From: a virus
Taxonomy: Duplodnaviria > Heunggongvirae > Uroviricota > Caudoviricetes
Length of the DNA: 7,355 nt
Virus record (IMG/VR): IMGVR_UViG_2579778804_000005
Direction: 5' to 3' (one strand)
Shown here: in pieces, positions 1 through 7,355 of the stretch
Layout of the letters: each line of letters opens with the position of its first letter
Position numbering within the stretch: the first letter of the stretch is position 1
Made by a program: the position numbers and the translations under genes
Notes under the pieces: generated by a model
Told to the model about the DNA's origin: nothing
The model's input: the letters and a program-made list of their open reading frames with translations, nothing else
Databases searched by the model: none

Positions 1-8
1 GGCGGGAA

Positions 9-1838
9 TTACCCGCCGTTGGATTGTCCTGATAAGCTGGTTAATGTTAATGATTTCAAGAAGCTATCCCGACTTGCTCTCGCTGTAAAATCCACATAAT
101 CGCTTAATCTGGATGTGTCAGAATTAATAGTAAGAGGAACCTCTGTTACCACTTCAAATGTAGGATTCAGATTAAACACAGGAGATAAATTATAAGCCGG
201 AGTTGTCATTGCAAGATTATTTAAAGCACCCTGTTTGAGATTGGTTATCGGTGCTTCGCTGACTGACATTTTTACATCTGACACAGAAGATTTATCATCG
301 AAAAGCAATCCCTTAATCGTATTAAATAGAGAATGACTATTATCAGGTGTAGTTGTTGCAGTGCCAGCGCCTTTATATTGATCAGGAACGAGATTAGAAA
401 GATTCTGTTTCATTCCTTCATTGCTTAATGGCGGTGCATCTCCCATATTTTTCTGAATAGCTTCCGTCTTATCATCATTACGATTAAACCAGTTTACAAT
501 CTTCATAATAGCTTCAAAGAGACTTCCTGTAGCTTCTCCCAGCTTCGTAAAATACGGAGTGAGATTAGAAAGGTTTTTCATAAACTCTTCCGTTACTTTT
601 GGATCGAGAGATTTCATAAAGCCGTCTACGAATGCTACTTGTCTTGCATCAGAAAGCTGTGAAAGCTGTCTGTTTAGTTCTCTGAATTTAACAATAGAGT
701 CTTGCTGTGTTTCTGTTAGCCATTTTCCAGAGGCTTTTTGCTGATTAATACTTTCTTGTACATCTTTAACGGAACGTTGCCAATATTTTGATGTAAGCAT
801 CAAATCATCGCCCAGGTCTTCTAAACGTTGTCCAATTTGGGAGTCTGAAAACCCTTTTTTCATCATTCCATTAACAGCCTTAGAAATTAATCCAGCCGGA
901 TTATCAGCAAATTTTTTAAGGTCGCTTTTGTTAATAACACCGATGTTTAGAAGTTCATTAATAGCGTTATCACCGCCTTTCCATTCAGATTTTCCTTTCT
1001 TGTCTTTCACCAATTCAGCTTCACTGTAAGATTTTGCGGCACGTTCCCTAACATCTTTCATCTGATCCAGGTATTTCCTAGCCCCTTGATCACCCTGGAG
1101 GCTATCGATCCCGTGTCTATAGGCCCATTCTGTAAGGTTGTACATCTGGTTAACGTCTACACCGCCAAGCCTTGCACGTTGAATTAATTCTCCTTGTGTC
1201 TCTGCGTTAGCGAAGCTATTAGCCATAAATTCAGCGGTTTTGCTTACAGCCATCACGCCAGCAGCAGCCGTAGCGCCTCCAAATAACAGAGCGCCCATAG
1301 TGGCGGAATTCCCTGATCCTCCTCCCTTAACGGGGGCTAATTGAGCTTTTCTGTTGCCATTAATCTTACGTTGTTGTTGTTGTAGGCGTTTCATCTGGCT
1401 ATTCATACGTGCAAGCGAGATAGCCCCTTGCTCATATTGTTTTGCTATCTCTCTAGCCTGTGCAATAGCTTTGTATTGTTCCGCTACAGAGAGGCGGTGC
1501 ATTGCACTGATAGAGCTTGACACATCAAGGAGTTTTAATTCTGCTTTCTCTTTACGTGCTGCTATTTGTTGCTGTTGCCTTGCCTGTGCTCTTGCTGCGG
1601 CAGCTTGTGCTCTTTGATTCTGTTTTTCTGTTTTGGCTTTCTGTTGAGCAATCTTATCTACTTCACTTTGTGCTTTCTTATAGCCTTTAGTGACATTATC
1701 AAATCTTAATTTAGCTGGCTTGATATTTTCTGCGAATTCCTTTAAGCCTGTAATAGAGTCTTTCGCTTTTTTCAAGCTGTCTTTATCTACACTAAATGTT
1801 ACTGTGTTCTTAATTTTAGAAGTGTTAATTTCTAACAT
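9..1838 (-). CDS. Large virion-associated protein (609 aa) with a Q/A/R/K-rich coiled-coil-like segment and a Gly/Ala-rich hydrophobic segment; possibly tape-measure-like or an internal/ejection protein
   Basis: Complete ORF: ATG at 1838-1836, TAA at 11-9, AGGGGA ribosome-binding site upstream. The protein has a low-complexity stretch (QNQRAQAAAARAQARQQQQIAARKEKAELK) followed by GGGSGNSATMGALLFGGATAAAGVMAV. It is the longest gene and lies downstream of the capsid gene. Being a real gene is well supported; the function is inferred from composition and position only. Confidence 0.5.
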   Translation of the reverse strand: MLEINTSKIKNTVTFSVDKDSLKKAKDSITGLKEFAENIKPAKLRFDNVTKGYKKAQSEVDKIAQQKAKTEKQNQRAQAAAARAQARQQQQIAARKEKAELKLLDVSSSISAMHRLSVAEQYKAIAQAREIAKQYEQGAISLARMNSQMKRLQQQQRKINGNRKAQLAPVKGGGSGNSATMGALLFGGATAAAGVMAVSKTAEFMANSFANAETQGELIQRARLGGVDVNQMYNLTEWAYRHGIDSLQGDQGARKYLDQMKDVRERAAKSYSEAELVKDKKGKSEWKGGDNAINELLNIGVINKSDLKKFADNPAGLISKAVNGMMKKGFSDSQIGQRLEDLGDDLMLTSKYWQRSVKDVQESINQQKASGKWLTETQQDSIVKFRELNRQLSQLSDARQVAFVDGFMKSLDPKVTEEFMKNLSNLTPYFTKLGEATGSLFEAIMKIVNWFNRNDDKTEAIQKNMGDAPPLSNEGMKQNLSNLVPDQYKGAGTATTTPDNSHSLFNTIKGLLFDDKSSVSDVKMSVSEAPITNLKQGALNNLAMTTPAYNLSPVFNLNPTFEVVTEVPLTINSDTSRLSDYVDFTARASRDSFLKSLTLTSLSGQSNGG

Positions 1839-1852
1839 TTAAAATCCCCTTA

Positions 1853-2056
1853 TTAATCATTTTTACCACCTTCTTTACTTAAGAAATGGTGTAGAGCCTG
1901 ATCAATACTCTCGTTTAGTCTGAACATACGGGCTTTTACTCCTTCATATGGAACATCTAGGAGAGAACATAGATATTTCAGATTTAACAATCCTCTAGAA
2001 TCATTAGCATCTAAATGTACGTGTACACCATTTTTTGATTTCAAAATCACTTCCAT
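1853..2056 (-). CDS. Hypothetical small protein (67 aa)
   Basis: ATG at 2056-2054 preceded by a GAGGTGA ribosome-binding site; TAA at 1855-1853, 14 nt before the next gene's ATG. Same strand and tight spacing as its neighbours. No recognisable motif. Confidence 0.55.
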   Translation of the reverse strand: MEVILKSKNGVHVHLDANDSRGLLNLKYLCSLLDVPYEGVKARMFRLNESIDQALHHFLSKEGGKND

Positions 2057-2079
2057 ATTTTAATCACCTCTCAAAATTT

Positions 2080-2123
2080 AAAAATAAATAAAAAAAAGGC
2101 GAAGCGTGAATACACGCCACGCC
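2080..2123 (-). terminator. Rho-independent terminator immediately after the capsid gene
   Basis: Hairpin at 2098-2123 (ggcgaagcgtgaatacacgccacgcc): inner 5-bp stem gcgtg/cacgc with a 4-nt loop, outer ggcg/cgcc stem across a 2-nt internal loop. On the minus strand it is followed by a long U-run (plus-strand A-run 2080-2097). It starts about 20 nt past the capsid stop codon (2145-2143). Confidence 0.6.
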
Positions 2124-2142
2124 TCTAATACACGTTAAAATA

Positions 2143-3171
2143 TTATTTCACAGTGATTTGAACGGAGAAGCCAACGCCGTGGTTTACAACCATCTGGCTA
2201 TTCTCTGTAACAACGTTAACAGCATCACCACGAGAAGATTCATAGCTATAGCTGTACACCTCAGCAGGAGCGGTATTAATCAGTTCAAAGGTGCTGGAAG
2301 CAGCCCCGTAGATGTTCTGATATACATTAGAGCCTTTAGCAAACTTCGGAACCGCTACAGCGTCTGCGGTCATATGTGCAAGGTGTAGCGGATCTACCAG
2401 TTTAATAACATCAATGTTAGTTCCTGGAATAGTGAACGCTGTCACCCCTGGCAGCAGGTCACGACGCTGATACACAACGTTCCCTTCTTCCAGTGGGCTT
2501 ACATACTGGAATGCGTTTGCCATACCCGCAGAGAATCGAATTGCAGAGAAGGCTTCCGGCTTACAGAAAACAACAATACGCTCTACAGCAGCCGCCTGGC
2601 TTTGTGCTTTCTCGATAATGTCAGTAGCAATCTGATCAAATTCTTTAAAAATCTTCGTGGTGTCAGTGCTGGAAGCGTTCACAGTGGCTTTCATAGCTGA
2701 TACGTTAAACAGCTTGCCCCACTCGATAAGAACATCGTCAGTTTTCGGGGTATGTGTCTTGCCAGAGAACAAAGAAGCCGCCAACACGCTCTCTTTTGTA
2801 CGCTGATACGCTACGTGATGTTTAGCAACATAGTCAGCATAAATATCAGTGAGTGTTTCCTGAAAATCAGTGCCAGGCTTACGCTTGCCTTGCACGTCCT
2901 GCGGTTTGATCAGGTCTTCCCTTAAAAAGTACGGGATTTCGACCAGCCATTCTTTACCTTGTTCTCGCTTAGTAACATTGTGTTCAGAAGAGAAACGAGA
3001 GGTTTCTTTGTTGAACAGAGATTCGTTAGTTTCCACCAGTTGGCTAACAGCTACTTTATGAGAACTAACGCCCACCGGATCAGTGAAGTCGAGAGTAGAA
3101 AGCAGATAGTTTCTAGTGCTATGCGCAGAGAACAAAGGAGCTAAATCAACGTAATCATTACCTAGAATCAT
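2143..3171 (-). CDS. Major capsid protein (342 aa), HK97 fold, resembling the T7 gp10 family
   Basis: Complete ORF: ATG at 3171-3169, TAA at 2145-2143, followed by an intrinsic terminator. By recall, ERIVVFCKPEAFSAI...MANAFQY...PLEEG resembles T7 gp10A DRVFYCDPDSYSAIL...MPNAANY...DPEKG, and PKFAKGSNV resembles FPANKGEGNV. Length matches gp10A (~345 aa). This is a recalled comparison, not a computed alignment. Confidence 0.62.
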   Translation of the reverse strand: MILGNDYVDLAPLFSAHSTRNYLLSTLDFTDPVGVSSHKVAVSQLVETNESLFNKETSRFSSEHNVTKREQGKEWLVEIPYFLREDLIKPQDVQGKRKPGTDFQETLTDIYADYVAKHHVAYQRTKESVLAASLFSGKTHTPKTDDVLIEWGKLFNVSAMKATVNASSTDTTKIFKEFDQIATDIIEKAQSQAAAVERIVVFCKPEAFSAIRFSAGMANAFQYVSPLEEGNVVYQRRDLLPGVTAFTIPGTNIDVIKLVDPLHLAHMTADAVAVPKFAKGSNVYQNIYGAASSTFELINTAPAEVYSYSYESSRGDAVNVVTENSQMVVNHGVGFSVQITVK

Positions 3172-3189
3172 TTATTATTATTCCTTTTA

Positions 3190-3552
3190 TTAAGAAGTGA
3201 AAACAGAATGGAACCCTTCAAGCTGGAAGCCTTTTTTAATTAATGCTGTTTTTGCTGCTTCACTTACAGCATTCAGGGCATCAGCTTTAATGCACACAAG
3301 GCCAGCATTGCTACGTAGCACATCTACAGGCTTGTTTTCTCCTGCCGTTACAAATTCACTCATAACAACATAGATATCATCTCCTGATTCATATTTAGCG
3401 CCCGTGCTTGTGATCAAGTCGCCACACTCAACATCAGCAGGAAGAGAAGCAAAAACCTTGCTTTCTACAGAGGCAAACGGATCAGTACAATAACTTACAA
3501 TATCTGTGAAAGTCTTTCTAACTGGAAACAGAGTGTCTAAATCAATAATCAT
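3190..3552 (-). CDS. Hypothetical capsid-module protein (120 aa); possibly a scaffold, decoration or assembly factor
   Basis: ATG at 3552-3550 with an AAGGAGA ribosome-binding site 7 nt upstream. The start overlaps the upstream gene's stop as ATGA (3552-3549), indicating translational coupling. TAA at 3192-3190, 18 nt before the capsid ATG. Function is guessed from position only. Confidence 0.55.
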   Translation of the reverse strand: MIIDLDTLFPVRKTFTDIVSYCTDPFASVESKVFASLPADVECGDLITSTGAKYESGDDIYVVMSEFVTAGENKPVDVLRSNAGLVCIKADALNAVSEAAKTALIKKGFQLEGFHSVFTS

Positions 3553-3761
3553 TTAGTAATCTCCTTAGCTTTTAATTTGATTAGTTCATTAAGGGAAGGT
3601 GTAGACGGAGAAGAAGGAGAAAAATATTTTTCAACACATCTTTCCACTTCCTCTACAGAACACCCAGCGTATTTAGCTACCATTTCGGTAATTTGTGGAT
3701 TAATTTTCAGCATTTCATCTCGATACTTGATGATTTGCTCTTTATCATTTAAGAACAACAT
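3549..3761 (-). CDS. Small protein (70 aa) with a helix-turn-helix-like segment; possibly DNA-binding
   Basis: ATG at 3761-3759; the TGA stop overlaps the next gene's ATG. The segment QITEMVAKYAGCSVEEVERCVEKY has HTH-like periodicity. It is the first gene after a 344-bp intergenic region containing an operator-like inverted repeat. The exact start codon is uncertain. Confidence 0.5.
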   Translation of the reverse strand: MLFLNDKEQIIKYRDEMLKINPQITEMVAKYAGCSVEEVERCVEKYFSPSSPSTPSLNELIKLKAKEITK

Positions 3762-3828
3762 TTATATAAACCTTGTTACCTTGTTTAAAGTAAGAAATAC
3801 AACTTTTAAGTTGCATAACGGGCAAAAT

Positions 3829-3855
3829 AAAAGGCAGCATTTAGAGCCGCCTTTT
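3829..3855 (-). terminator. Weak hairpin, possible terminator between the upstream operon and the structural operon
   Basis: aaaaggc (3829-3835) pairs with gcctttt (3849-3855) around a 13-nt loop. Flanked by A-rich and T-rich runs, so it could act in either direction. Only three G/C pairs in the stem. Confidence 0.25.
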
Positions 3856-3883
3856 ATTAACTTGTACCTATGTAATTACCCTA

Positions 3884-3915
3884 TGTTATGCATACTCCAA
3901 GATGTATGCATAACA
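3884..3915. promoter_or_regulatory. Perfect 12-bp inverted repeat (operator-like) upstream of the structural genes
   Basis: tgttatgcatac (3884-3895) and gtatgcataaca (3904-3915) are exact reverse complements separated by an 8-bp spacer (tccaagat). A third copy of the TGCATAAC core lies at 3812-3819. All sit in the intergenic region upstream, in transcription sense, of the ATG at 3761. Confidence 0.45.
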
Positions 3916-4105
3916 AAGGAAAAAAGAGGTAATAATGACACTTAAGGAGGAGGAGAAGCGGGGAGCGGAGATTTTACTCCCCTTTAATGACAGGAAGAAT
4001 TTTTAATATCGAACCAACAAAGGAAAAATAATCACCCCTATATAATTATATTAACATACAATATATGAAATGTCAAGATATTTTACAACTTTTTTGTTGC
4101 TTTTT

Positions 4106-4441
4106 TTATTCTTCTGTGATAGCGCCTAAGCGTTGCGCTAGTTCAACAAGTCCGTCTCCTACATAGCGAATATCAGATTCAATATCTTCTATCCAGTTTG
4201 ATAACTCCCATATCTGATCCGCTGTCAGGTATGCGTTCTCACGCTTACAGAGCATCTCTACACGCTTAGAGAGGTGTTCAAAGGCACACACAGCTAAATC
4301 CCAGTGTTTAAACGCCTCATTTAGTGCCGCTGGCGTGTTTTCTTTGTATGCTTCAAGTTCAGCGCGGTTTAAAGGCAGGAGGTAATCATCCTCATAATAA
4401 TTAATTAGTGAGTAAATTGTATCATACGTGTTTTTGTTCAT
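4106..4441 (-). CDS. Hypothetical protein (111 aa after start revision)
   Basis: The ORF track starts this gene at 4468, but that ATG and the next one (4456) have no ribosome-binding site and overlap the upstream gene. The ATG at 4441-4439 has a GGAGA site 8 nt upstream and sits 1 nt after the upstream TAA (4445-4443). TAA at 4108-4106. Confidence 0.55.
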   Translation of the reverse strand: MNKNTYDTIYSLINYYEDDYLLPLNRAELEAYKENTPAALNEAFKHWDLAVCAFEHLSKRVEMLCKRENAYLTADQIWELSNWIEDIESDIRYVGDGLVELAQRLGAITEE

Positions 4442-4442
4442 A

Positions 4443-4850
4443 TTAAAAGTCTCCATAGTGATCTGCATTATCTAAATGGAATTCAGGAACTAAATTATTT
4501 AGGCCATTGGTGGCGAGATAACCAACGTAGTGATTATAATCTTCAAATCCTAAAATCTGGTATTTGCGTAAATCAGAGCTATCAACAATATACTCTTTTC
4601 TTTTTCTAGGTTTCCAGAATACGCCAGGTGTTGAAGATAAGATTTCTTGCAAGGCGTTAAATTCATCTCCACAAGGCACAGAGGGAGAATGTTCTATGAT
4701 CTCTGTTTTCCATTCGCCAGGGGCGCTATTTTGCTTGGTGAGCGTAACTAGCTCTTTAAAGTCTTTGCGTCTTAGAATAGATTTAGGTTTACTTAGAAGA
4801 GAAGCTGAATCACCGATCTTCTTAACAACGTTGTTTTTTCTTTTTGCCAT
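4443..4850 (-). CDS. Hypothetical protein (135 aa) with a basic N-terminus (MAKRKNNVVKK)
   Basis: ATG at 4850-4848 with an AAGGAAA-type ribosome-binding site; TAA at 4445-4443. Co-directional with and tightly joined to the downstream gene. No confident family assignment. Confidence 0.55.
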   Translation of the reverse strand: MAKRKNNVVKKIGDSASLLSKPKSILRRKDFKELVTLTKQNSAPGEWKTEIIEHSPSVPCGDEFNALQEILSSTPGVFWKPRKRKEYIVDSSDLRKYQILGFEDYNHYVGYLATNGLNNLVPEFHLDNADHYGDF

Positions 4851-4982
4851 TATTTACTTTTCCTTTTCTTTTAAAGGAAAACACCCCGAAGTATGTTTCT
4901 AACGTGAGAAAGAACAATAACCAATACATAGCTACTATCATAATAATGTTTTCCTTTTATATTTTAATTACATAGAGAGATT

Positions 4983-5258
4983 TTAGAGAGTGGAATAGAT
5001 GAATTCTACTTTATCCAGTCTTTTGAGATTGAATGTAGAGAAAGATAATTCTTTAATCTCTATAACACCGAAATTTGATAGCTGTCTAAGCCAGAATTTT
5101 AAACCATCTTCAGAGCAAGCTGCTCGATGTAACACATCGCTATATTTTAGCGGTGTTGGCTTTCCTTTATAGAGGTAAGCAAGTGTTTCGTAGATGCGTT
5201 TTCCTGTGTCATTACACTGAATTCTGTCTACTTGATTTTTTACTAAATATTGAATCAT
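4983..5258 (-). CDS. Hypothetical protein (91 aa)
   Basis: ATG at 5258-5256 with a strong AAGGAGG ribosome-binding site that overlaps the stop codon of the upstream replication-initiator-like gene, suggesting coupled expression. TAA at 4985-4983. Confidence 0.55.
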   Translation of the reverse strand: MIQYLVKNQVDRIQCNDTGKRIYETLAYLYKGKPTPLKYSDVLHRAACSEDGLKFWLRQLSNFGVIEIKELSFSTFNLKRLDKVEFIYSTL

Positions 5259-5269
5259 AACCCTCCTTA

Positions 5270-5923
5270 TTAAAATGGAATATCAAAGTCATCATACACA
5301 TTTGGGTAATGCTTAGAAAAATATGCCTCAATACCATTTGGTAGCTTTAACCTGTGCTTATAGGCTAACGATGTTGCAAATTCTATAAAGGATGCTCCTG
5401 CTGTTCTGGTGTTTTTCTGCTGGCAGATAAGAGAGGCAAAATTCTCTAACACATCCTCCTCATTATCATTAGCTACCTTTTCATTTGATGAAACAGGTGT
5501 TTCTTCCGTCTCCCACGGCAAAGGCGCATCCCAATCATCAAGAACATCAAAAGAAGACTCTTTATTATCTTCTGTAGGGGGAAGCTGTTCAGGAACAGCT
5601 TTAACGGTAGCTTCTTGTTGTGTTTTGGCTTCTTGTCTAGCTTCTTCTTGTGGAATATCTACCACTTGATAGACATTAGAACTTCCTGGTCGTGCATCTT
5701 TTATAATTAATCCCATTTCGAGCAATTTCTTAACCCTTTCCTCTGCTGCTCTTGGTGTTATGCCAAAAACATCGCCTATCTTAGCGTAAGAGGGAAATGC
5801 ACGATCAAACCCTTTCAGATAGCAGTAAAGGTTTTTAGCACTATCTGTAAATTTATGCCCGTTTACTTGGCTTATTTTTAGAATCCACATAGGAACTTTT
5901 ACAAATTGTTCTTCATTAATCAT
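5270..5923 (-). CDS. Replication-initiator / replisome-organiser-like protein (217 aa): N-terminal winged-HTH, acidic linker, C-terminal DDFDIPF tail
   Basis: ATG at 5923-5921 with an AAGGAGA ribosome-binding site. The N-terminus (VPMWILKIS...YAKIGDVFGITPRAAEERVKKLLEMGLI) is typical of HTH replication-initiator and phage replisome-organiser N-domains. The middle is acidic and Pro/Glu-rich. The last residues NVYDDFDIPF were checked codon by codon at 5302-5273, with TAA at 5272-5270. Confidence 0.6.
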   Translation of the reverse strand: MINEEQFVKVPMWILKISQVNGHKFTDSAKNLYCYLKGFDRAFPSYAKIGDVFGITPRAAEERVKKLLEMGLIIKDARPGSSNVYQVVDIPQEEARQEAKTQQEATVKAVPEQLPPTEDNKESSFDVLDDWDAPLPWETEETPVSSNEKVANDNEEDVLENFASLICQQKNTRTAGASFIEFATSLAYKHRLKLPNGIEAYFSKHYPNVYDDFDIPF

Positions 5924-5974
5924 TAAAAATCTCCTTATAAATCACGCTTAATGCGCTACTAAAGTGAATGAGGA

Positions 5975-6142
5975 TCACTTACCCTTTTTTTGTTTGATGT
6001 TCTCTGCTGCTTCAGTAATGATTTCTAACATCAAATCACTGACCATAATTTGCCTTTTCTTGGCTTCAGCAAATAAAACCTTGAAGATTTCAGGGTCAAC
6101 GTGTAGGTAAGTACGCGGAATTGGTTTCTTGGTTTCGCTCAT
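5975..6142 (-). CDS. Ribbon-helix-helix (CopG/Arc/MetJ-type) DNA-binding protein, 55 aa, absent from the ORF track
   Basis: Manual translation: ATG at 6142-6140 with an AAGGAGA ribosome-binding site, TGA at 5977-5975. Product MSETKKPIPRTYLHVDPEIFKVLFAEAKKRQIMVSDLMLEIITEAAENIKQKKGK shows the classic strand-helix-helix pattern (TYLHVDPEIF... then ...SDLMLEII). It lies 19 nt after the 62-aa gene and 51 nt before the replication gene. Confidence 0.6.
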   Translation of the reverse strand: MSETKKPIPRTYLHVDPEIFKVLFAEAKKRQIMVSDLMLEIITEAAENIKQKKGK

Positions 6143-6161
6143 AGTTTTCTCCTTCTATTCT

Positions 6162-6350
6162 TTACTCTGTTTCAGATTCTTTTTCATTTTTTCTTAGTTC
6201 ATCAATAATCTTGAGTGCTTCATTGAAGCAAGCTGCTCGCTCTGGATAACCTCGACTCCTTGCCATATTACGATTCATTACTACTTGATGGCGTGTAAGC
6301 TCACCTTTTTTAAATGCCTCCACGACGTGTTCTGATGTAAACCATTTCAT
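6162..6350 (-). CDS. Hypothetical small protein (62 aa), first gene of the regulatory/replication operon
   Basis: ATG at 6350-6348 with an AAGGAG ribosome-binding site 6 nt upstream; TAA at 6164-6162. It lies downstream of a predicted sigma70-type promoter. Basic/acidic composition, no confident motif. Confidence 0.5.
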   Translation of the reverse strand: MKWFTSEHVVEAFKKGELTRHQVVMNRNMARSRGYPERAACFNEALKIIDELRKNEKESETE

Positions 6351-6460
6351 AAAAAACTCCTTATTCAGTTAAAAGAAAAACACCTTGCAAGCCTGACGGC
6401 TTCAAAGTGCATTGATTTTGATTATTTAGAGAAGAATGTTTTTCTGTCCCTCTAATACCT

Positions 6461-6489
6461 ATTATTACATATAAAGAAACATTTGTCAA
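6461..6489 (-). promoter_or_regulatory. Sigma70/SigA-type promoter with an extended -10, reading toward the 62-aa, RHH and replication genes
   Basis: On the minus strand: TTGACA (-35, plus 6489-6484), a 17-nt spacer, then TGtAATAAT (extended -10, plus 6469-6461). The predicted transcript start is about 100 nt upstream of the ATG at 6350. Confidence 0.45.
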
Positions 6490-6581
6490 TACCTTTTCAC
6501 AAAAAATCTGATCTTTTTCATGCACTTACATTTTTTCTTAGCTATTCGTGCTCTTCTGTGTAGTGCTATTCTTCATTATTG

Positions 6582-6610
6582 TCTAAAACGCTCTAAAACG
6601 CGTTCTAACG
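6582..6610. repeat. Tandem direct repeats (iteron-like): two perfect TCTAAAACG copies at 10-bp period plus a degenerate third
   Basis: tctaaaacg at 6582-6590 and 6592-6600, then ttctaacg at 6603-6610. The junction forms the palindrome aacgcgtt (6597-6604). Located in non-coding DNA upstream of the promoter. Confidence 0.5.
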
Positions 6611-7015
6611 AGATTTTGATAAAAGCAATACATTCCCTTATCTAATGGCTGTTTAGCTCGCCAGAGGCTTATTTAAGGGGCTTATTTTGTATTTGTTAGG
6701 TATATGAAAAGGTAATGGCAGATATAAGATAGAGAGTCACTTTATAAAACGTTCTGTAAAGCCCTGTAGTGAGATTATATATGTAGGCAATGCGTTTCCA
6801 TTCCCTACCCTGCTTAATGCTGTTAGAGAAGCATTTAGACCCCTTATTTTTAATTAATTAAAGTATCCTCTGTACCTTGTGTTATGAAACACCTCTGAAT
6901 CCTTCATAAAACACATTATGACGCAAAGAACACTTTTCTAAGGTGATTCCCTTCCTGAATGCTGTTTCTTGCGTCAGAGAGCTACACAGAGCTTATAAAG
7001 CTATTATTAATAATA

Positions 7016-7076
7016 AAGTAGATAAAGTAAGATAAGTAAGTAAGATAACTAAGATAGATAAGATTAATAAGATCAG
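7016..7076. repeat. Low-complexity GATAAG/TAAGAT-rich tract
   Basis: About 60 bp built almost entirely from GATA(A/G) and TAAG units (gataaagtaagataagtaagtaagataactaagatagataagattaataagatc). No ORF on either strand. Confidence 0.5.
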
Positions 7077-7117
7077 AATTCTCTTTCGGTGTCGCCTCTG
7101 GCTTTTCCACCGAAAAC

Positions 7118-7274
7118 AATTACACGACTACAGAAGTAGGAAGTGGAATTGTATTGAGGCTTAGTGAAATTACACGAGGAAAGCAGAGTGTAATTGAGCT
7201 TTAGCCGCTCTCTCTTCGAGTAATTACACAACTACAGAGAATAACGAGAGTTATTAAATGTAGGAAGTGGAATT
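7118..7274. repeat. Cluster of AATTACAC sites (three direct, one inverted) and a perfect 15-bp direct repeat
   Basis: AATTACAC at 7118-7125, 7168-7175 and 7222-7229; inverted copy GTGTAATT at 7188-7195. GTAGGAAGTGGAATT occurs at 7136-7150 and 7260-7274. The two long units (7118-7150, 7222-7274) differ by a ~20-bp insertion that contains a small ataac/gttat inverted repeat. Confidence 0.5.
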
Positions 7275-7341
7275 AAGAGGTAGAGAGAGTTAACACATAA
7301 GCAATCAGTATGATTGGTTAGGTGATTACTCTTCTGCGCAC

Positions 7342-7355
7342 CTGTCTCTTATACA
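7342..7355. other. Likely Tn5 mosaic-end (Nextera-type) adapter remnant, not biological sequence
   Basis: The final 14 nt, ctgtctcttataca, match exactly the first 14 nt of the mosaic-end adapter read-through sequence CTGTCTCTTATACACATCT. The match sits at the very end of the window. It fits the synthetic mosaic end, not the natural IS50 outside end (CTGACTCTTATACACAAGT) or inside end (CTGTCTCTTGATCAGATCT). Confidence 0.75.

Follow-up and report, generated by a model that had tools for sequence, protein, structure and literature searches.

What is the role of a gene for a protein of just 55 amino acids (aa) that lies directly in front of a replication gene? The gene in question occurs in the IMG/VR virus record IMGVR_UViG_2579778804_000005 (Caudoviricetes), a stretch of 7,355 nucleotides (nt) that was analysed as a whole and is referred to here as the window. 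A first-pass annotation, made from the letters of the window, had read the 55-aa product as a ribbon-helix-helix (RHH) protein and had likened its gene, together with a preceding 62-aa gene and the replication gene (rep) that follows, to the copG-rep operons of small plasmids, in which an RHH repressor autoregulates rep. The 55-aa open reading frame (ORF) is a real gene, the RHH fold of its product is well supported by structure prediction, and the 217-aa product of rep is, to judge from its sequence, very probably a replication initiator. There is about an even chance that the RHH protein is a small regulator limiting expression of the module, above all that of rep; that it would autoregulate rep is suggested by the order of the genes.

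A real gene in a constant place

The module consists of three genes, each preceded by the Shine-Dalgarno (SD) sequence AAGGAG:

6162..6350, minus strand, 62-aa gene, the first of the module (ORF, SD, homologues)
5975..6142, minus strand, 55-aa RHH (Arc/CopG-class) gene (ORF, SD AAGGAG)
5270..5923, minus strand, candidate gene for a 217-aa winged-helix (HTH_36, O-like) initiator (phrog_270, modular termini, iteron co-variation)

The placement of the 55-aa ORF between the 62-aa and replication genes was correctly given by the first-pass annotation, in coordinates as well as in order, and these genes, like all others in the window, are on the minus strand. The 62-aa and 55-aa genes are 19 nt apart, and 51 nt separate the 55-aa from the 217-aa gene. 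Loci for comparison came from two types of Escherichia coli island, from other Escherichia, from isolate genomes, and from metagenome and IMG/VR contigs. In more than 25 loci the RHH gene holds the same slot between a gene of about 60 aa and a winged helix-turn-helix gene of 200-275 aa, and in every intact locus it is directly upstream of rep in the same orientation. Protein identity within the family reaches down to 32% among isolate genomes, and in every pair compared both small genes have many more synonymous than non-synonymous differences. For the RHH gene, the window and locus L019 differ by proportions of 0.78 at synonymous (pS) and 0.18 at non-synonymous (pN) sites, and the ratio of non-synonymous to synonymous rates (dN/dS) is 0.19 between L021 and L022; for the 62-aa gene dN/dS is 0.11-0.2 in unsaturated pairs. 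The earlier concern that the ORF might lack conservation is thus removed by its SD sequence, by pS far above pN and by the fixed slot.

One allele of the RHH gene, type A, to which that of the window belongs, is found in 216 of 5,426 complete E. coli genomes. The protein family is nonetheless small: two very large protein searches, one of them an exhaustive HMMER search of 1.84 billion representatives, returned 8 matches each, so that no broad family alignment is possible. The gene had been described as unannotated, which is true of the ORF track that the earlier reader had, but RefSeq already lists its product (WP_000005056.1, hypothetical protein), as does the entry for phage muut (muut_153). 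In L026, an E. coli island, the slot (3817-4005) is taken by another RHH-like protein (MNINFDSATYNALLNRAKAEGKSIPKLVNELL...), which shares 23% identity with the family and whose gene overlaps the start of rep. This protein aligns with the family profile at a pairwise E-value of 3e-4, and its only Pfam match (FitA-like) and its best match in the PDB (AvtR), both RHH proteins, are weak.

The fold of the 55-aa protein

The AlphaFold2 model of the protein has a predicted local distance difference test score (pLDDT) of 86.5, rising above 90 over the core, and consists of an extended segment (residues 1-16), helix A (17-29) and helix B (34-53), which is the order of secondary structure elements of an RHH protein. 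DSSP assigns no strand in the monomer model, as would be expected if the ribbon forms only in the dimer. All 50 of the best Foldseek matches in the PDB are RHH proteins, with probabilities up to 0.99 and template modelling (TM) scores of 0.66-0.75 for the top five, and they uphold the earlier assignment of the protein to this fold. The best match is Arc (1par), and the others include MazE-mt9 (6a6x), CopA_SO (6iya), ORF56 (2k9i/3ft7) and CopG (1b01/2cpg/1ea4), as well as MatP, ParG, NikA, NikR, TacA, AtaR and VapB. With so small a domain, individual Foldseek E-values are weak (0.09-1.2). The predicted strand P9-R10-T11-Y12-L13-H14-V15 alternates polar and hydrophobic residues, as RHH strands need; T11 and L13 are invariant, and the allele types differ at positions 10 (R/K/S), 12 (Y/C/S) and 14 (H/T/M). 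The 55 residues amount to an RHH core of about 45 residues with a short basic tail. From the known properties of the fold, the protein would be expected to bind DNA.

The probable initiator and its iterons

The 217-aa protein matches phrog_270 'replication initiation protein' (8.6e-11) and O-like families, with HTH_36 below the cut-off. Rep is built from a variable N-terminal DNA-binding domain, an acidic linker and a conserved C-terminal domain, and across the E. coli islands at least six types of N-terminal winged helix (alpha to zeta) are joined to one C-terminal domain. A profile search of genome contigs with the Rep alignment returned one locus. The origin-like region, an AT-rich stretch followed by tandem arrays of 18-24-bp repeats, lies at 16500-17000 of L011, the locus with the island of the window; this is equivalent to window positions 7500-8000, about 1.1-1.6 kb upstream of the cassette and just past the window's right end. 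For four N-terminal types of Rep, a particular array is present or expanded:

alpha Rep, array ACAGAATTCTGT, 23-bp period
epsilon Rep, array TAGGTCACTGTGAACTAGGGGG
gamma Rep, array GGGTATCAG..TTGATAG
zeta Rep, array ACCTAGGAAATGA.TTCC

No array was found for beta Rep. The distant island L012 has an alpha-like Rep and the array GGGGTAACAGAGTTTTGTGGGG, which fits the alpha link, and some islands hold three or four different arrays. A search for iterons inside rep, in the manner of lambda O, found only short repeats reflecting repeated QEEA codons. Because the N-terminal type co-varies with the iteron arrays, and with the phrog_270 match beside it, the name 'replication gene' given to this ORF by the first-pass annotation can be retained.

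RHH types combine freely with Rep domain types and with iteron arrays. Of the proposed copG-rep-like cassette, it is the gene order that stands; the small-plasmid context, a Rep of the rolling-circle replication (RCR) kind and an operator at the promoter do not.

Further repeats were noticed inside the window, at 7118-7274, where there are three copies of AATTACACGACTACAGA at a spacing of 50-54 nt and two of GTAGGAAGTGGAATT at a distance of 124 nt. Since L003 has a different Rep type and keeps these repeats, they are unlikely to be Rep iterons.

Predicted promoter, leader and terminator

The region in front of the 62-aa gene holds the following elements:

6461..6489, minus strand, sigma-70-type promoter-like site TTGACA-17-(TG)TAATAAT (11/12, the best in the window)
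6428..6451, minus strand, leader stem-loop SL1, right after the predicted transcription start (RNAfold, four divergent leaders)
6412..6423, minus strand, tandem AATCAA-AATCAA in the single-stranded part of the leader (AATCMA units in all leaders)
6409-6381, minus strand, intrinsic-terminator-like hairpin with a U tract at 6380-6371 (TTTTTCTTTT), between the promoter and the 62-aa start codon

The -35 box and the spacing of the promoter are kept in all island types, and the leader (window 6371-6454) follows the same plan in every island. The arms of SL1 vary in sequence between island types with their complementarity kept, AATCMA units number two to four per leader at irregular spacing, and the stem of the terminator hairpin is 12-13 bp long. 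Whole-leader folds have z-scores of -2.9 to -4.3. Compensatory changes affect 7 of 13 pairs in a six-sequence leader alignment; in ten leader sequences all 70 cells of the outer stem are paired and 3 of its 7 pairs show double changes, a score that none of 500 shuffles reached. A simple terminator scan of the window did not flag the leader hairpin.

The module had been taken to be fed by one promoter. The promoter at 6461-6489 is indeed the best in the window, but a conserved terminator-like hairpin precedes the 62-aa gene. With a promoter followed by a terminator hairpin, the region therefore probably yields a leader RNA of about 85 nt, with the operon dependent on read-through. The plus strand of the module has only weak promoter-like (6181-6209) and terminator-like (6100-6138) sites, which do not form an antisense unit.

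The leader may represent a small RNA of about 85 nt or an attenuator. Nine nt in the SL1 loop region (AGAAAAACA, 6437-6445, minus strand) are perfectly complementary to nine in the 3' arm and U tract of the terminator (UGUUUUUCU, 6374-6382, minus strand), an alternative pairing that could compete with termination; L003 has another sequence at the 5' arm. The same design recurs elsewhere in the window, at:

4076-4048, minus strand, second strong promoter-like site, TTGACA-17-TAATAT with TG

About 190 nt after this promoter there is a terminator-like hairpin (~3858-3826, z -3.8), and the pair precedes the 70-aa, 120-aa and capsid genes. Control by termination, in the manner of P4 immunity, may be regarded as a lead rather than a result.

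How the RHH protein may act

In the reading with the even chance, the 55-aa product would act as a dimeric RHH DNA-binding protein, its gene being the middle one of a three-gene early or replication module that also encodes a helical 62-aa protein and a winged-helix, iteron-binding initiator. Transcripts would start from the strong promoter (6489-6461) and would for the most part end at the leader terminator (6409-6371), the rest reading through to give a common message for the 62-aa protein, RHH and Rep. Repression would then be exerted from a candidate site, be it an element that all promoters and leaders share or a motif just 5' of the rep ribosome-binding site:

5941..5960, minus strand, conserved motif AGTAG-(short GC hairpin)-GTGAT, after the RHH stop codon and before the rep SD

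Nearly all loci with the same RHH family have this motif downstream of the gene, and in L012 to L015, L019 and L020 it also occurs upstream of the gene (L012 5915-5936 and 6207-6225; L019 1112-1132 and 1358-1377). L021 has CGAT for TGAT, L016 a different hairpin, and L026, with its other RHH protein, no such motif. When eight type-A loci were compared with nine type-B loci by k-mers, the only type-specific DNA was the RHH gene and some 50 bp after it (window 5929-5977), which contain the motif; there was no RHH-type-specific k-mer at the promoter, in the origin region or elsewhere in the island. The motif may serve RHH binding or act as an RNA element, or it may just be linked to the gene; a type-independent RHH site at the promoter or in the leaders may also be considered.

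Several observations weigh against a regulator acting in this way. The first-pass annotation had suggested repeats at the promoter as the operator, but no inverted or direct repeat overlaps 6461-6489; an 11-nt direct repeat was the other find of the search near the promoter. In L018, L017 and L025 the promoter, leader and 62-aa gene are essentially those of the window, whereas the RHH protein is only about 45% identical and has C12 on the recognition strand where the window has Y12; because alleles so different stand behind identical promoters, a CopG-style operator at the promoter is not indicated. The RHH type co-varies with its own 3' flank only, for which plain linkage could account, the hairpin of the motif is thermodynamically weak (z -0.74), and a promoter scan found no internal promoter in the RHH-rep spacer. 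As to the protein, the comparison with RHH family models that had been proposed as a check gave no significant Pfam or NCBIfam match for the window protein and five homologues and none among PDB sequences. PHROGs and PADLOC likewise gave nothing significant for it. There were faint signals nevertheless: three of nine family members match phrog_582 'Arc-like repressor' weakly (best E 0.002), and hhalign places the protein against CopG and Arc in the correct register, at pairwise E-values of 0.007 and 0.043 and low probability.

Three other candidates for the target were tried and rejected. One is a 9-nt inverted repeat with arms 54 nt apart (AGAAAAACA/TGTTTTTCT), of which the 5'-arm sequence is replaced in L003. 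The window and L003, both of type A, have different SL1 sequences, and the window and L018, of types A and B, have the same one. The iterons co-vary with the Rep type, not with the RHH type.

Copies in lytic phages

The RHH gene was found in two of 50,697 phage records, those of the lytic phages muut and inny (Justusliebigvirus). The RHH protein of muut is identical to that of the window, with 99.6% DNA identity over window 5916-6154; the protein of inny is identical to it at residues 1-53 and has the C-terminal tail of L003. In both phages the RHH gene is accompanied by the intergenic motif and by the 5' part of a rep-like gene. The gene that follows encodes a protein of 332-367 aa with two HTH_36 domains and a MUG113/T5orf172 (GIY-YIG-class) domain; the MUG113 match is just above the cut-off in muut and just below it in the corresponding protein of Mt1B1_P17. 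The first domains of the three phage proteins are of different Rep types:

muut_154 (L001 2371-3369), first domain gamma, 90% identical to the L018 Rep
inny_184 (L038 877-1980), first domain beta, 91% identical to the L003 Rep
Mt1B1_P17 QNJ49226 (L002 2366-3352), first domain alpha, 83% identical to the window Rep

The second domain of all three is of the zeta type and 85-91% identical to the L026 Rep. In inny the RHH variant, the spacer and the beta domain are exactly as in islands of the L003/L035 type, and because of this agreement it is probable that the RHH gene and the 5' end of rep were captured as one block.

The three proteins belong to lytic Stephanstirmvirinae phages; with their two Rep domains and one nuclease-like domain they resemble two-headed versions of ICP1 Odn. 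A search of the papers available yielded no description of satellites of Stephanstirmvirinae/phAPEC8-like phages or of Odn-like nucleases outside Vibrio.

The 62-aa protein

Thirty homologues of the 62-aa protein were found, all in Escherichia or metagenomes. Its AlphaFold2 model (pLDDT 87.5) is a three-helix bundle, most similar in fold to small phage proteins that are themselves uncharacterised. Pfam and NCBIfam gave no match above the cut-off, no toxin is found among the PDB and BFVD fold matches, and PHROGs and PDB sequences yielded nothing significant; PADLOC gave weak PDC-S05 matches (E 0.003). The homologues in two divergent metagenome loci, L021 (105-293) and L016 (~181-372), apparently start with ATT (IKYF...), the others with ATG (MKYF/MKWF). 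The reading frame and SD of the ATT-start homologues are conserved.

The island and its distribution

Positions 1-7341 of the window are 100% identical to the chromosome of E. coli 89-3156, where they lie within an island of about 12 kb that adjoins tRNA-Thr and proA (L011 6903-19095). At least 80% of the window is found in 280 of the 5,426 complete E. coli genomes; matches to the locus lie on the chromosome in 721 E. coli genomes and on a plasmid once. The ~12 kb island contains:

tyrosine integrase gene (annotation)
Dit-like tail protein gene (annotation)
gene for a 609-aa tape-measure-like protein, 33-35% identical to tape-measure proteins of ~147 kb Stephanstirmvirinae phages
major capsid protein gene (Phage_cap_E match)
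several small genes, with the 217-, 55- and 62-aa genes
ORF-poor region of ~3.6 kb, almost without ORFs

No terminase or portal gene was seen in the annotation of the island, and Rfam gave no match, at E up to 1, for the leader or the ORF-poor region. We infer that the window DNA is part of an integrative, phage-satellite-like island and not of a plasmid. A link between the island and Stephanstirmvirinae phages is suggested by the tape-measure protein, the shared Rep domains and the shared RHH gene.

The second island type, situated between rcnR and thiM (L003-L010), has only the cassette and non-coding DNA in common with the first and carries GmrSD_N, HTH_31 and resolvase genes in place of the others. 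About 1 kb of ORF-free DNA upstream of the cassette (window 6375-7341 against L003 8774-9770) is ~95% identical between the two types, whereas the adjoining 62-aa gene is only ~65-70% identical; by this measure conservation is higher in the non-coding than in the coding DNA. Over its first ~120 nt (window 1716-1837) the tape-measure-like gene has 77-86% nt identity to the starts of many phage tape-measure genes, in Escherichia and Klebsiella phages of ~145-150 kb, and the remaining protein is just 33-35% identical. Window 7342-7355 (CTGTCTCTTATACA) is not present in the matching 89-3156 genome. As these last 14 bases match what we take to be the Nextera mosaic-end adapter, the end of the contig is an artefact.

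Other explanations

The two small genes adjoin, 19 nt apart, and RHH antitoxins (MazE-mt9, CopA_SO, TacA, AtaR, VapB) are among the fold matches, so that they could be imagined as a toxin-antitoxin pair with the toxin gene first and the RHH protein as antitoxin. This is extremely unlikely, as the first-pass annotation had already surmised in ranking it low: the 62-aa three-helix bundle matches no toxin family or fold, the RHH protein is a core of ~45 residues without a toxin-binding extension, and the partners do not diverge together. The same 62-aa protein (97-98% identical) is paired with RHH alleles of 45% identity (types A and B), the same RHH allele with 62-aa alleles of ~70% identity, phages hold the RHH gene without the 62-aa gene, and the 62-aa homologues of L021 and L016 have apparent ATT starts. 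It is very unlikely, too, that the protein is the excisionase (recombination directionality factor) of the island. The island does have a tyrosine integrase, no AlpA/Xis-type family was found among the window proteins, and the RHH protein is small with a basic N-terminus; its gene, however, is always tied to rep, ~7 kb from int, keeps this position across islands with different integrases and integration sites, and is kept by lytic phages. Known directionality factors, moreover, are mostly winged-helix proteins. An accessory or architectural protein that helps Rep at the iterons, in the manner of ParG, omega or TraY, would explain why the RHH gene always adjoins rep and why some islands have more distinct arrays than one Rep type needs, and ParG and NikA are among the fold matches. 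Such a role is distinctly improbable, given that no array co-varies with the RHH type (A and B each occur with alpha and epsilon arrays), that the type-A islands L003 and L035 lack all four arrays, and that the k-mer comparison showed no type-specific site in the origin region.

The phage copies raise a different possibility, in which the RHH gene and its 3' motif would be a swappable specificity module in a conflict between the islands and Stephanstirmvirinae phages. It would act in trans on helper genes or on the rep of the rival, so that a phage copy would stop satellite Rep synthesis and satellites would escape by exchange of type. Two lytic phages do carry the gene, at 99.6% nt identity, beside a nuclease-like protein with two Rep domains; promoter, 62-aa gene, Rep domain and iterons do not move with the RHH alleles when these are exchanged; and type-specific DNA is confined to the 50 bp with the motif, upstream of the rep SD. 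The pattern matches that of PLE and ICP1, in which the phage nuclease Odn has a RepA DNA-binding domain (PMC8263062). The reading is possible but unlikely, since the gene is present in just two of 50,697 phage records, passenger capture with the 5' end of rep explains these equally well, and no RHH-type-specific site was found elsewhere in the island. A combined version, rather improbable as a whole, would make the RHH gene and AGTAG-hairpin-GTGAT a portable module that gates Rep synthesis in an apparently undescribed family of Stephanstirmvirinae satellites in E. coli, muut and inny having taken up the module along with satellite Rep domains fused to a GIY-YIG-class nuclease; the RHH copy of these phages would then shut off satellite replication and so drive the exchange of RHH alleles. 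The preferred reading is still that of a small regulator of the module, principally of rep.

Comparison with known systems

The closest likeness in gene order is to pMV158, in which CopG limits repB, as ORF56 does in the same role in pRN1. In both pMV158 and the island an RHH gene of ~45-55 aa is immediately upstream of the initiator gene in the same orientation. The island differs in that its Rep is an HTH_36/O-like winged-helix protein matched to iterons whereas that of pMV158 is an RCR (HUH) protein, in that it is chromosomal and not a small plasmid, and in that an extra 62-aa gene and a leader with a terminator precede the RHH gene. CopG has a pseudo-symmetric operator, and RNA II is the antisense control element of pMV158; in the island no pseudo-symmetric operator covers the -35 box, and for an antisense RNA a sequence scan turned up no more than weak plus-strand sites. 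Among the RHH fold matches is ORF56 of the Sulfolobus plasmid pRN1 (2k9i and 3ft7, the former deposited as a plasmid copy-control protein), whose gene is just upstream of that of the pRN1 replication protein; pRN1 is an archaeal plasmid, its replication protein is a primase-helicase, and there is no sequence similarity to the 55-aa protein. Arc, the best Foldseek match, resembles the protein in size and secondary structure, to which the weak phrog_582 matches may be added. Arc and Mnt of P22 control the ant gene from a palindromic operator, whereas the neighbour here is rep, and hhalign against Arc is weak. RHH antitoxins (MazE-mt9, CopA_SO, TacA, AtaR, VapB) share the fold and the small-gene neighbour, but the 55-aa protein lacks a C-terminal tail for toxin binding, its would-be partner does not resemble a toxin, and the two adjacent genes do not co-vary.

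RHH genes that precede replication genes are well known as a control design, so that the finding alone is modest. The 55-aa RHH gene is a new, unmodelled member of this design, and what is more unusual are the leader RNAs, the modular origin and the phage copies. In the immunity system of P4, a constitutive promoter is combined with premature termination in the leader governed by the CI RNA. The island resembles it in having a strong, constitutive-looking promoter and, within ~90 nt, a conserved terminator before the early or replication genes of a satellite-like element, and differs in that its leader has no sequence or Rfam match.

[quoted passage not shown] In PLE RepA the type of DNA-binding domain is matched to the origin iterons, and ICP1 Odn joins a PLE RepA-like domain to a T5orf172 nuclease and cuts the PLE origin (PMC8263062). 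The islands share with PLE a swappable N-terminal DNA-binding domain that co-varies with iterons on a conserved C-terminus, and the phage proteins described above, by their domain matches, appear like Odn to join Rep-type domains to a MUG113/T5orf172 (GIY-YIG-class) domain. The differences are that the domain is RepA_N in PLE and HTH_36 here, that the phage proteins here have two Rep-type domains, and that no RHH gene has been described upstream of repA in the PLE of Vibrio cholerae. The cassette thus offers an entry point to a widespread island that resembles a satellite of large lytic coliphages, and the RHH target, once known, would show how the island stays silent and how it switches on. 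Three features would make the island an E. coli counterpart of the Vibrio PLE/ICP1 conflict: the independent exchange of Rep domains, iterons and RHH alleles, a leader terminator at the start of each of two operons, and phage copies of the RHH gene and of Rep domains, the latter fused to a nuclease-like domain.

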